Below, piece after piece: positions 1 through 3,891 of a stretch of DNA of 20,897 nucleotides. The notes beneath the pieces are model-generated. The model was not told the origin of the DNA. It was given only the letters and a program-made list of their open reading frames with translations, and made no database searches. Position 1 is the stretch's first letter; the number at the start of each line of letters is the position of its first letter. This stretch comes from an uncultured bacterium (GTDB lineage: Bacteria; SAR324; NAC60-12), in assembly GCA_964010765.1 (NCBI GenBank), contig CAXGMD010000063.1, positions 1 through 20,897 of the forward strand, given 5' to 3'. The position numbers and the translations under genes were made by a program.

Positions 1-61
1 CTGCGGTGTTGGTCAAGTGGCGCAGGGCGGTCATGGATGCAATGTTGTGATTCACTCGCAT
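1..61 (-). CDS. fliC: Flagellin, N-terminal fragment (continues beyond left edge)
   Basis: Reverse strand from ATG at 61 reads MRVNHNIASMTALRHLTNTA, a typical flagellin N-terminus (M-R-I/V-N-H/T-N-I-A-S/A). SD AGGAG at 68-72 (minus). Not in the ORF track. Confidence 0.88.
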   Translation of the reverse strand, partial: MRVNHNIASMTALRHLTNTA

Positions 62-505
62 GGCTAACTCCTAAAGCTCATGATTGATTCGGCTGGACCG
101 AATATGGCAGTCAATTGCCAGATTTAAAAAAATCGTTGTTATTCAAATTATTTAAATAGATTATAATTAATCAGATTTTCTCTGATAAATTATATTTTTC
201 AGAGAAAAATGCTTTTGATCGTTTCGCTTCAGGCTGCTCTCGTCAACCGATTCTGCAAAACAGGTCGAAGCAGACAGTTAGCAATGATCTGTAGGAAGCT
301 ATGCTTGAAAATTTATTTGCCAAAGCAAACAAATATCTGAGCCAGGCTGAGACTCTGTTCAGCAGAATAATTCCTACACAGATTTGCGTAGGCTTCACAA
401 ATCCTATTGTCTAGCAAACACAACAGCGTGTTGTCTGCAATTAGATAGGGCTAAGTCTCAGGTAACTTCCTTTGCTCTATTTAAATAATCGAAGAACCCT
501 CAAAC

Positions 506-523
506 TACTCTGGAATGGATCGC
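506..523 (+). repeat. Left arm of perfect 18-bp inverted repeat TACTCTGGAATGGATCGC
   Basis: Exact reverse complement of 1400-1417; extends to 22 bp with one mismatch (502-523/1400-1421). Confidence 0.95.
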
Positions 524-1399
524 AAGAGGTACTGCCTTCGATCAAGCACAAACAAATTGATTTCTGTTCACCAAGAAGAGATTCAGATCAATTGGCAATT
601 TCCCGGATTGCTAATTAGGTATCTACAGTTCTTCAAAACGAACAGAACGAGCTGCTTTATTCTTCCAAGAAAACAGAAGAATTCTGCTCAAAGCGAGACT
701 GAAGTATATTATAAACAGTCTCCCATTCAGCAGGCAGGATTATCGTGTGCGAGATAGCCCTGCAAACTTATATCGTGATTTTATGCCTACCAGGATGAAA
801 CTTGGCAAAGTGTTTCTGAGCGGCTTCACTTCTTTGACAAGATCTGCTTCTACAGAAGCTGTATGTACTTCACAAATGCAGATCACCTAGCCAGAGTTGG
901 GCAACTTTGCTTTATAAAAATGTTTCAGGACAGAATTTAGTGTGCCAATGCTTTCAGCTATACAGGCGAAAGCCACTGTCATAACCTTGTTGCTGCGAAC
1001 TGATCAAAGCTGCTTGTGCCAAGGCCCTTTGGCGTTCAGCACAGAAAAATTAGCTATTGATCTTCAAAGCAAAGTAGCTGCGAATGTCCGTGCCAGAGCC
1101 ATTCGGCTAGCAGGACGCGGTGAACCGATCTAGTTCAGCATTGCAGAGACGGGTAGCGTTTGCCATTGGCCAAACAAGCTTCAAGAAGCGATGTTGGTTC
1201 CGTCAGGAAGCGGGTTCATCCCGGGTGCTAGCAGGAAACTCTGTTAGCACGTTTCGGCAGCTGAGATCTTTGCTCAAGCTTGCCTTGGCATTTTAGTTCA
1301 AAGAACGAAGACAGTTTTTGGTAGTTTCAAACTACCTGTTTGCTAGAGATCATCCCTAATACTGATGGGAATTCAGTTTTTTCGGGGCATCTCAAGCAG

Positions 1400-1417
1400 G
1401 CGATCCATTCCAGAGTA
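1400..1417 (-). repeat. Right arm of perfect 18-bp inverted repeat (GCGATCCATTCCAGAGTA on +)
   Basis: Exact reverse complement of 506-523. Confidence 0.95.
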
Positions 1418-1432
1418 CTTTCTTAAATAACA

Positions 1433-1459
1433 ATATCGGCAGAAGGCCGAATTTCTTTA
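1433..1459 (-). promoter_or_regulatory. Sigma-28 (FliA) promoter, proximal
   Basis: Minus strand reads TAAA-N15-GCCGATAT (consensus TAAA-N15-GCCGATAA), oriented toward flagellin. Confidence 0.8.
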
Positions 1460-1502
1460 GTCTTTTCTCACCTAAACATAGATGGGGAGAGACTTGATAA
1501 AG

Positions 1503-1529
1503 TTATCGGCAGAGAGGGCAGAGACTTTA
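1503..1529 (-). promoter_or_regulatory. Sigma-28 (FliA) promoter, distal
   Basis: Minus strand reads TAAAGTCT...GCCGATAA with exact 15-nt spacing after TAAA, a perfect consensus, 70 bp from the proximal copy. Confidence 0.85.
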
Positions 1530-1548
1530 GCGATAATTGAGAGGAATT

Positions 1549-2100
1549 TCAGAGGAAATGTGGATGGCGGATTTGGACGAGTTCCCCTGGCCACTGCAGG
1601 TACTGTTGCCAGCGGGGGTCAGGGACTGTGATCTGCATTTGCTTGACAGCATGCACCATCTCCCAGTAGTCAAGTTCTCGCGGCTCACGTAGCGGTCGAA
1701 TATCAGTTCGTTGTCCCTTACGGCGATTGCATCCCCGGCAGCAAGTGACGATGTTCTCCCAGGAATTCCGCCCCCCATGGCTCCGAGGCAGCACATGGTC
1801 ACAGGTCAGTTCAATCACAGGAAAACTCTTCCCACAATACTGACAACGATGCAGATCCCGAATAAAAATATTGCGCTTGGTGAAATTAACGCGGAGCCGG
1901 GCCCGATGGTATTCATGGAGAATCACCACGCTGGGAATCTTGATGCGTGTTGAAGGAGAACGGCATTCGTGAGCATACCATTCCAGCACATCAATCTTGC
2001 CAAGATAGTAAGATTTGATACCCCACTTCCAGCTCACCACGCTGAGTGGATTCCAGCGATAGGGCTGGACATCAGCGTTTAGAACCAGAACTTCTCCCAT
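1549..2100 (-). CDS. HNH endonuclease (McrA-like/HNH_5 family, zinc-binding)
   Basis: N-terminal VLVLNA...PL, IPSVV, RD.HRCQYCG, TCDHVLPRSHGG..SWENIVTCC..CN.RKG; SD GGAG upstream. Confidence 0.92.
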   Translation of the reverse strand: MGEVLVLNADVQPYRWNPLSVVSWKWGIKSYYLGKIDVLEWYAHECRSPSTRIKIPSVVILHEYHRARLRVNFTKRNIFIRDLHRCQYCGKSFPVIELTCDHVLPRSHGGRNSWENIVTCCRGCNRRKGQRTDIRPLREPRELDYWEMVHAVKQMQITVPDPRWQQYLQWPGELVQIRHPHFL

Positions 2101-2145
2101 GGCATGTTCTCCGCTGGGGTTTCAGTCCGGCTGGAAAGGGACCGG

Positions 2146-3891
2146 CTAGGCTGGGATGGATGGTGATTCAGGAAGTAGGTTTTCGATGGCTTGGTCTTCT
2201 ACCGTGATACTTAGAACTTCTTCCAGCGTAGTCAACCCTGCGCGAATTTTCTGGATTCCATCCATTCGCAGTGTGATCAAACCGTGGCGCAATGCAACTC
2301 GCTTGATCTCGTTGGCATCACTGCTCTTAAGAATCACATCCTTGATGGAATCGCCCATGATCAACAATTCGTGTAGGCCCAATCGCCCTCGATAACCTGT
2401 TTCGCGACAAGCTGGACAACCTCGACCTCGGTAAAATGTTGTATTGACTTGGCTTGTACCAAGACCTAACTCACGTAACTGCTCTGGATGAGGTTCATAG
2501 GGTTCTTTGCAGGAAGAGCAGATTTGACGCACCAAGCGCTGAGCCAAGACTCCAATGATGGTTGAAGAGACCAAGAAGGGCTCTACGCCCATATCAATCA
2601 AACGAGTGATTGTTGCAGGGGCGCTGTTGGTGTGGACAGTGCTGAAAACCAAATGTCCCGTCAGAGCAGCCTGGATGGCAATCTGAGCAGTTTCTGCATC
2701 TCTCATCTCACCTACCATCACTACATCAGGATCCTGGCGCAATACTGAGCGAAGAGCACGTGCGAAGGTAAGACCCAAACGTGAGTTGACCTCAATCTGG
2801 CTGTAACTCGGAATCTTGTATTCAACTGGATCTTCAATAGTAATTACGTTGCGCGCCTGGCTATCAATTTCTCCAAGCGATGCATAGAGTGTGGTTGTCT
2901 TTCCGCTTCCGGTTGGCCCTGTCACTAGCACGATTCCACCAGACTTTTGAATCATCGAACGGAACGGTTTGAGGATATTCTCACTCAATCCCAACTCATT
3001 CAGACGCATCAGCTTGCTGCTCTGGTAGAGCAAACGCATCACGATTTTTTCACCATGTACTGTAGGGATGGTAGAGACCCGGATATCGATCTTCTTACCC
3101 GCGATCAGGACCATTGTTCTACCATCCTGTGGTAGACCTTTCTGGGCGATATCGAGCCGCGACATTACTTTGACGCGGTTCACGACCGTCACATGAACCT
3201 GTCGCGGCAGGGTGGTCACCTGATGCAAAACACCGTCAATTCGGTAGCGAACGACTGTTGACTTTGGAGAGGGATCAATGTGCACATCACTCGCTTCATC
3301 TTTTGCGGCTTGCCAGAGCAGGCTATTGACCAGTCTTTTGATTGGCTCCTCATCGTTGGCTTCCAACAAGTCTTCTGGTTCTTCCACACCCAGAATACTC
3401 TCAAAATTCTCTTGGTCATCTAGATTATCCACAGCTTCTTCAGTAGCAGCTGAAGTACCGTCATAAACCTGATTGATTAGATCGATGATTGCCTGGTGGT
3501 GGGAGATCACCGGTTGGTAACGCAGTCCCCAAGTACGGCATAGATCATCCAGCAGATCTGTACGTGCAGGGTTTTCAACGGCTACTTGCCAGATTCCATC
3601 GGCATAGGCGAAAGGGCAAAAAACAAAATTTTTGAGATGTCGGATAGAGACTTTATCTGAAAAGCCTTCTGGTAACTGAGGAACATCAAAATTGTCGCGA
3701 TATTCTAACTCATAATACCGTGCCAGTGCCTGTTGCAACACCGTCTCGGTCGTGAGCTTCTGCTTGATGGCAGCATTCTTCCAATCTTCCCAACGGATAC
3801 TCGCAGGCATCTCTGCCTGTAGTTGCTCTAGCTTCTCAGAAACAACCCCAAAGTCAGTCGTCAGAATTTGGGCAACGTGCGTGAAGGGCAT
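2146..3891 (-). CDS. gspE: Type II secretion / type IV pilus assembly ATPase (GspE/PilB family)
   Basis: ASDVHIDP, RYRIDGVL, PQDGR, Walker A GPTGSGKTT, TIEDPVEY, LRQDPDVVMVGEMRD, GHLVFSTVHTN, and two CxxC zinc motifs. Confidence 0.92.
   Translation of the reverse strand: MPFTHVAQILTTDFGVVSEKLEQLQAEMPASIRWEDWKNAAIKQKLTTETVLQQALARYYELEYRDNFDVPQLPEGFSDKVSIRHLKNFVFCPFAYADGIWQVAVENPARTDLLDDLCRTWGLRYQPVISHHQAIIDLINQVYDGTSAATEEAVDNLDDQENFESILGVEEPEDLLEANDEEPIKRLVNSLLWQAAKDEASDVHIDPSPKSTVVRYRIDGVLHQVTTLPRQVHVTVVNRVKVMSRLDIAQKGLPQDGRTMVLIAGKKIDIRVSTIPTVHGEKIVMRLLYQSSKLMRLNELGLSENILKPFRSMIQKSGGIVLVTGPTGSGKTTTLYASLGEIDSQARNVITIEDPVEYKIPSYSQIEVNSRLGLTFARALRSVLRQDPDVVMVGEMRDAETAQIAIQAALTGHLVFSTVHTNSAPATITRLIDMGVEPFLVSSTIIGVLAQRLVRQICSSCKEPYEPHPEQLRELGLGTSQVNTTFYRGRGCPACRETGYRGRLGLHELLIMGDSIKDVILKSSDANEIKRVALRHGLITLRMDGIQKIRAGLTTLEEVLSITVEDQAIENLLPESPSIPA

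Follow-up and report, generated by a model that had tools for sequence, protein, structure and literature searches.

What does a bacterium make from two sigma-28 promoters that point at a flagellin gene from 1.37 kb away? We examined this question in an uncultured SAR324 bacterium, known from a metagenome-assembled genome of 3.86 Mb and 46% GC (G000), in which the window analysed here is one whole contig of 20.9 kb. The contig end cuts a flagellin gene on the minus strand whose start is real (MRVNHNIASMTALRHLTNTA, ATG at 61-59), and the 1.37 kb between the promoters and this start contains no long reading frame. We propose that FliA promoters probably make a flagellin mRNA with a structured, untranslated 5′ leader of 1.37-1.44 kb, inferring start sites and co-transcription from the arrangement of the locus, its relatives and public RNA libraries. 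The promoters and the gene start lie in the window as follows.

1..61, minus strand: flagellin gene, first 20 codons; the rest is on contig C261 (531-amino-acid frame)
68..72, minus strand: Shine-Dalgarno sequence AGGAG, read from the sequence; AAGGAGG is conserved in other genera
1433..1459, minus strand: proximal sigma-28-type promoter P2, TAAAG-N14-GCCGATAT, exact; predicted start ~1424-1426
1503..1529, minus strand: distal sigma-28-type promoter P1, TAAAG-N14-GCCGATAA, exact; predicted start ~1496

Promoters and family-wide layout

The sigma-28 consensus has a -35 of TAAA, a 15-nt spacer and a -10 of GCCGATAA. P1 (TAAAGTCTCTGCCCTCTCTGCCGATAA) matches it exactly and P2 (TAAAGAAATTCGGCCTTCTGCCGATAT) differs in the last base only (T); both read TAAA-N15-GCCGATA[AT], lie 70 bp apart, and sit exactly where a first-pass annotation of the window had placed them, with start sites predicted from the positions of the boxes. 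The window holds three matches at no more than one mismatch versus 0.04 expected, a number reached by none of 100 shuffles, and there are only five exact TAAA-N14-16-GCCGATA[AT] sites in the 3.86-Mb genome, two of them at this locus. That annotation had also seen no comparably good motif near the flagellin ATG, and we found no further sigma-28-like site in 1-1432, on either strand, at up to three mismatches. Among 15 aligned relatives, the -35 and -10 of P1 are identical in all 13 sequences that cover them, and P2 is present in 15/15, its -10 being GCCGATAT in 13, ACCGATAT in G008 and GCCGATAA in G005. A genome profile search found FliA to be encoded (TIGR02479 matches at 253 and 198 bits, both above the cut-off), as is FlgM (49 bits). 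The two FliA/WhiG-type sigma genes above the family cut-off are on contigs C75 and C166.

Other TAAAG-type boxes of the genome sit 41-138 nt before their open reading frames (ORFs), and the 1372-nt distance between promoter and flagellin is therefore exceptional for this organism. The pairing of the boxes is not: a flagellin on contig C141 (C141:1977-2076, minus strand) has tandem boxes 73 nt apart, 53 and 126 nt before its ATG, so tandem boxes are a local norm and distance alone is unusual here. The flagellin on C257 has a box 56 nt before the gene. In P1 transcripts, the P2 -10 (window 1436-1450) supplies one side of a 5-bp hairpin (UCGGC..GCCGA) with a U-rich tail behind it; to judge by this terminator-like sequence, such transcripts may pause or end there.

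The stretch 62-1600 was recovered at 81-94% identity in five of eight congeners, and 11 metagenome contigs carry it too (86-99.6% identical). Of the 45 family genomes, 43 contain a clear ortholog of this flagellin, as do 11 of 12 genera (53-72% identity, best match per genome), against only 1/19 genomes of the sister family at E <= 1e-120. Comparison of the 3.1 kb upstream of the ortholog in 20 family genomes, from nine genera, revealed a TAAAG-N14-NNCGATA box on the gene strand 809-1836 nt before the ATG in 20/20. The strict motif finds a tandem box in six of these 20, and several others have a near-match 70-85 nt further on; in the low-GC family genomes, no stop-free frame of at least 90 codons lies between box and flagellin. 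The gene upstream of the box varies by genus (an HNH endonuclease here, a CAAX protease in genus g11, an AI-2E transporter in g2) while the layout stays, indicating that box, gap and flagellin travel together. The order of promoters, long gap and flagellin noted in the window is thus kept in relatives, with P1 and P2 themselves retained within the genus. As a control, a second flagellin paralog in 12 genomes had a box in six, always ~60-330 nt from the gene; in the other 6/12 the strict motif gave no box. We conclude that the SAR324 family inherits promoters, leader and this flagellin together, as a single unit.

Structure, strand and coding potential of the proposed leader

Within the genus the interval has three predicted long-range helices, an almost invariant core and a variable linker.

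1400..1421, minus strand: helix C, 5′ arm; begins 2-5 nt after the predicted P2 start
502..523, minus strand: helix C, 3′ arm; closes an 876-nt domain
476..489, minus strand: helix B, 5′ arm, predicted; 14-nt perfect inverted repeat with 147-160
147..160, minus strand: helix B, 3′ arm, predicted; pairs with 476-489
136..146, minus strand: helix A, 3′ arm, predicted; 11 nt, 91%, partner 1423-1433
1196..1345, minus strand: near-invariant core block with hairpins 1320-1336, 1256-1284 and 1225-1250; 96% mean column identity in 12 sequences
225..400, minus strand: linker, the least conserved stretch of the leader in the alignment with congeners

Helix C is a 22-nt inverted repeat, 95% complementary, and the repeat arm previously noticed beside the predicted proximal start is therefore real. 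In 15 sequences its 21 pairs are 100% paired, 20 of them invariant and one changed from G-C to G-U. In congener G001, which has a flagellin 72% identical and a leader of ~1.75 kb, helix C lies 6 nt after the predicted start and its arms are 1230 nt apart versus 876 here; one pair has changed on both sides, from G-C to A-U. This change removes the start of an 11-codon ORF, MDRLLEMPRKN, that exists in this genome and had been put forward as an upstream ORF opened by the arm: its ATG is ATA in G001, with compensation in the helix partner, and its stop is lost in G002, G006 and M145, so that claim falls. In helix B, T152C in relatives gives a G-U pair on the minus strand only, and the helix A partner 1423-1433 is present in P1 transcripts only. 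The three helices are nested, and as RNA they are predicted to form a three-way junction closing the leader ~75 nt before the ATG.

Constraint along the leader is very uneven, and the 96% identity of the core compares with 78-90% at third codon positions in neighbouring genes. The fraction of invariant positions is 0.94 in 501-550, 0.96 in 1251-1300 and 0.90 in 1401-1450, with near-invariant blocks of 50-145 nt within the genus, and is lowest in 251-400, where rows are missing. The assemblies of three congeners break within window 220-400 with overlapping contig ends (L011/L017, L012/L018, L014/L019), which suggests strain-level heterogeneity there in the source communities.

The 926-nt domain folds on the sense strand at -309 kcal/mol (z = -10.3 versus 20 shuffles), and the consensus structure from the 15-sequence alignment has 284 pairs, 98% paired. 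Eighteen of these pairs are changed on both sides, against 9.6 +/- 2.0 in shuffles (0/500) and 0-10 in slid controls; we take this covariation as moderate support because the structure itself came from this alignment, whose sequences are close relatives (81-99% identity). In the 1225-1250 hairpin, 100% paired in this alignment, two pairs are changed on both sides and four changes are G-U only.

The sequence changes also bear on which strand the structure reads. The predictions for the two strands share 115 pairs; G-U is tolerated solely on the sense (minus) strand at 14 of these and solely on the antisense strand at three, and with six genomes the one-strand count is 32 versus 15. The consensus energy of the 15 sequences is -256.6 kcal/mol sense versus -213.6 antisense. 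Genus g11 (seven sequences, with one row containing a run of N dropped) behaves in the same way, with one-strand G-U counts of 12 versus 6 and consensus energies of -42.1 versus -25.9 kcal/mol, and its leaders contain a conserved 17-bp hairpin whose G-U pairs are compatible with the sense strand only. In 19/21 leaders the flagellin-sense strand has no fewer G than C, and no plus-strand promoter-like site was found in 62-1530. The asymmetry between G-U and A-C changes and the consensus energies favour the minus strand, and the structure therefore reads in the direction of the promoters. The first-pass annotation had described a conflict between wobble evidence for the plus strand and minus-strand promoters: one G-U pair in this genome's 1225-1250 hairpin does fit the plus strand, but changes in the relatives keep pairing on the minus strand only. 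Its suggestion that the structured RNA is itself the sigma-28 product is compatible with a leader, being the same transcript.

RNA libraries contain the interval together with the gene. The stretch is present in 19 public runs, six of them metatranscriptome libraries with 42-52% of its words. One marine RNA library has a 650-nt contig, without a single difference, over window 1-557 and 93 nt more of flagellin, and a 629-nt contig over 720-1348; a salt-marsh RNA library has a contig over 1-255 and ~925 nt of flagellin. These contigs carry neither strand nor ends, and RNA libraries can include DNA, so they establish only the bridging of leader and flagellin start. The ~1.36-kb flagellin leader that had been suggested is thereby supported from three sides: the layout in 20/20 family genomes, the strand asymmetry and these bridging contigs. 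We set aside the gaps of RNA run X15 (no contig on 1349-2400; 617-719) as a hint to start sites, as uncovered parts are not evidence, and left unused the summed contig depths, which in three salt-marsh runs are greater at 800-1340 than across the upstream genes, as contig depth is no measure of expression.

A coding or known RNA origin of the interval found no support. There was no Rfam match in window 1-2200 (4227 families, E up to 1), and the same scan of 20 other leaders gave a single match at E up to 1, a spurious mir-331. No frame of at least 45 codons is conserved in the leader among relatives: on the sense strand, the 55-, 48- and 45-codon frames stay open in 1/9, 7/14 and 4/9 relatives, and on the plus strand those of 91, 90 and 71 codons in four, none and one of 14. 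Short frames that are retained are uninformative either way because the blocks holding them hardly vary. The leader is single copy in the genome, and tblastx, blastn and tblastn detected no translated likeness to the genome itself, to flagellin or to the leaders of other genera. A pseudogene or mobile-element relic was rejected after these searches gave nothing.

Internal leader sequence is not shared between genera. Common to them are the sigma-28 box(es), a purine-rich start (GAAAGACAA-like), great length and a 3′ module, which consists of an AT-rich hairpin, a small hairpin with a lineage-specific stem, and AAGGAGG-ATG. Its elements in the window, with an adjacent palindrome, are these.

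176..208, minus strand: AT-rich hairpin or palindrome, inverted repeat UUCUCUGA...UCAGAGAA with a AAAATAWTATTT-like core
105..120, minus strand: perfect palindrome TGGCAATTGACTGCCA, ~45-60 nt upstream of the ATG and mostly retained within the genus
88..102, minus strand: small hairpin UUCGG-N5-CCGAA just upstream of the ribosome-binding site, from sequence and relatives

The arms of the AT-rich hairpin covary (CCTCTGA/TCAGAGG in G002) and differ by lineage around the AAAATAWTATTT-like core; in 14/21 leaders this core is found 59-198 nt upstream of the ATG. In the hairpin, 33 nt are 91% identical in another genus. The leader L015 (G020:C24, from another genus) has the palindrome CTGAAAAATATTATTT(T/A)TCAG twice, at 1192-1211 and 1506-1533, ~90 and ~400 nt before the ATG. 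At the position of the small hairpin, g11 has equivalents with other stems, GGTCA..TGACC and GTCGA..TCGAC. The palindrome TGGCAATTGACTGCCA could, from its sequence, be a protein-binding site or a hairpin. Sigma-54 promoters have a GG to GC spacing of 10, and a -24/-12 reading of TGGCAATTGACTGCC was rejected, its spacing being 9.

Competing readings of the interval

We favour a leader that acts in cis on the late flagellin mRNA. Transcription of the minus strand would begin at P1 and P2 and continue into flagellin, giving a leader of ~1.44 kb from P1 and ~1.37 kb from P2. The 5′ end of the leader would pair with a segment ~900 nt downstream in the 21-bp helix C, and two further long-range helices would draw its 5′ and 3′ parts and its middle together ~75 nt upstream of the start codon. 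The 5′-terminal long-range helix may protect the transcript end; extensive pairing may shield the long untranslated RNA from premature termination and decay; and the conserved 3′ module, with its AT-rich hairpin, small hairpin and ribosome-binding site, may gate translation.

A bolder proposal, which we regard as possible but doubtful, is that this is a new class of kilobase-scale sigma-28 structured RNA fused to one flagellin and serving as a checkpoint or hub for late assembly. The fast-evolving, lineage-specific leader would then fold into a closed multi-helix body that would gate ribosome access and transcript survival in cis, with possible roles in trans in binding or titrating a flagellar regulator or in localising the mRNA.

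Several observations weigh against the cis-acting flagellin leader, in addition to the closeness of the relatives behind the covariation and the nature of the RNA-library contigs. Mean identities of the leader (62-1430) to congeners are 0.925, 0.925, 0.865, 0.807 and 0.809, and those of third codon positions in two neighbouring genes 0.78-0.90; the leader is on average no more conserved than such positions, and much of it may be weakly constrained. The folding energy of the single sequence is equal on both strands (-309 kcal/mol sense, -309.4 antisense). The contigs of three salt-marsh runs extend over the promoters and upstream genes as well. A covariance model of the invariant core gave no significant match in 20 leaders of other lineages (the best match, at E 0.084, was outside any leader), and no long 5′ helix was found outside the genus, where there are only chance-like helices of 9-14 bp with several G-U pairs. 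Lastly, flagellin may have a proximal promoter of another type near the AT-rich element, where a sigma-70-like site, TTATCA-17-TATAAT, lies at 188-160; it is not conserved in G002.

This last site is one ground for a reading in which a separate sigma-28 non-coding RNA (ncRNA) of ~1.0-1.3 kb ends, or is processed, ahead of flagellin, which mainly uses its own promoter by the AT-rich element at ~140-210. Such a division would agree with the conservation across genera of the last ~150-200 nt (AT-rich element, hairpin, Shine-Dalgarno sequence) as a module, with the position of the least conserved stretch, 225-400, between this module and the structured part, and with weak terminator-like hairpins on the minus strand at 392-373 and 355-339. 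We nevertheless consider it unlikely. The terminator-like hairpins fall in the least conserved stretch and are lost in relatives, the -10 of the sigma-70-like site is not conserved, RNA-library contigs from the flagellin coding region pass the AT-rich element to 255 and 557, and the flagellin has no other sigma-28 box.

The interval might also be a functionless spacer, the relic of an old insertion, in which only the promoters and the last ~150 nt matter. Mean identity close to that of third codon positions, the lack of between-genus conservation of internal sequence or structure, and a length ranging from 0.8 to 1.8 kb are all as a spacer would have them. However, a long gap has been kept in 20/20 genomes of nine genera despite the turnover of its sequence, there are near-invariant blocks of 50-145 nt within the genus, the covariation is in excess and the conserved 21-bp helix has a compensatory change, the folding z-score is -10.3, and no relic of a gene or mobile element was detected; we regard a spacer as improbable.

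Still harder to sustain is a structured ncRNA on the plus strand, crossed antisense by sigma-28 transcription in an interference or toggle arrangement, as the first-pass annotation had suggested. The plus strand of this genome's copy does fold equally stably (-309.4 kcal/mol, z -6.9), and the single G-U pair in its 1225-1250 hairpin fits only that strand. But in the relatives the shared helices tolerate changes that pair on the minus strand only, single-sided changes favouring it 14 to 3 and 32 to 15; the consensus energy favours it by 43 kcal/mol; the plus strand has no promoter-like site in 62-1530; and in 19/21 leaders G is no rarer than C on the flagellin-sense strand. This reading is very improbable.

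Least credible of all is that the 22-bp inverted repeats bound an invertible segment (a phase-variation switch) or a non-autonomous mobile element: the repeats do enclose 876 bp of the interval from a promoter to a flagellar gene, much as in the leader switch of Clostridioides difficile flgB (PMC7446863), and both arms have changed in concert in G001, but all 16 sequences spanning both arms (seven genomes, nine metagenome contigs) have one orientation and no inversion joints occur in contigs of the public runs (together a weak test, as contigs drop rare variants), the adjacent genes include no recombinase, the genome has one copy of the element, the arms have no target-site duplication, and genera without the repeat have long leaders too.

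Known systems, other flagellins and neighbouring genes

The flagellin leader that we favour is unusual in its length. Bacterial 5′ leaders of at least 1 kb are rare, and described flagellin leaders are short. Our literature search found no paper on a kilobase-scale sigma-28 flagellin leader or on flagellin control in SAR324, and no relevant one on SAR324 non-coding RNA in metatranscriptomes; as far as that search shows, this length has not been described for flagellin genes, whereas a long cis-acting leader as such is already known. The C. difficile flgB leader is ~0.5 kb. It is reminiscent of the present one as a long untranslated leader with inverted repeats between promoter and flagellar gene, and contains an invertible switch with post-initiation control through Rho (PMC7446863). 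That system is sigma-A dependent, serves an early operon and relies on DNA inversion by RecV; here the leader is 0.8-1.8 kb, would depend on sigma-28, precedes a late flagellin, and has no inversion in 16 sequences.

CsrA-controlled flagellin leaders are tens of nucleotides long and carry GGA twice, once in a hairpin loop and once over the Shine-Dalgarno sequence. The CsrA-FliW leaders of Bacillus subtilis hag and Campylobacter jejuni flaA exert post-transcriptional control on a sigma-28-dependent flagellin, as this one may, in a genome in which csrA and fliW are both present. Here, however, the last ~60 nt before the ATG have GGA in the Shine-Dalgarno AGGAG only, the hairpin loop reading UCCAG; without the two-GGA signature, the leader may answer to something other than CsrA. 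Titration of CsrA gives the C. jejuni flaA leader a role in trans as well (PMC4894983, PMC6529632). A CsrA sponge at the present locus was rejected, as the leader of this genome shows no excess of GGA (13 copies sense and 13 antisense, versus 17.9 expected); over 21 leaders GGA counts are 508 sense versus 287 antisense and 399 in shuffles.

The Escherichia coli RNAs MotR, FliX and others are small RNAs of ~100 nt derived from untranslated regions under FliA control. The present leader resembles MotR and FliX as non-coding RNA from the untranslated region of a flagellar gene, here at kilobase scale. With OLE, GOLLD, ROOL, HEARO and IMES it shares size (0.5-1 kb or more), strong predicted structure and presence in marine metatranscriptomes; unlike them it has no Rfam match and no structure common to the genera, and it would be joined to an mRNA.

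A 0.8-1.8-kb leader in every genome examined of a globally abundant, uncultured deep-ocean lineage would imply a further layer of control on motility. The locus is a testable case of a long untranslated bacterial RNA that needs to escape termination and decay, and filters on promoter-to-gene distance would miss genuine members of the sigma-28 regulon.

This flagellin is one of many. The genome has 12 Flagellin_N matches; flagellin genes number 7-14 per genome in the family and fall into at least two promoter classes. Several paralogs (on C187, C123, C6 and C233; loci L001, L003 and L005-L008) have no sigma-28 boxes; their upstream regions of ~170-250 nt contain a hairpin with GGA in its loop (GACACAGGGAAGUGUC-like) and AAGGAGG, which by sequence is the signature expected for CsrA-controlled leaders. 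By this signature the genome would therefore have at least two regulatory classes of flagellin. A single contig region, C13:13677-18246, groups flgM, an FlgL-like gene, csrA and fliW.

Two genes lie upstream of the promoters in the window.

1549..2100, minus strand: HNH endonuclease gene (Pfam HNH_5/HNH), the upstream neighbour, outside the unit
3891-2146, minus strand: PilB/GspE-type ATPase gene, upstream of the HNH gene

The stop of the HNH gene is only 20 nt from the P1 -35, with no evident terminator in between. Its product has 183 amino acids, and its first and second codon positions are 97-99.5% identical among congeners.

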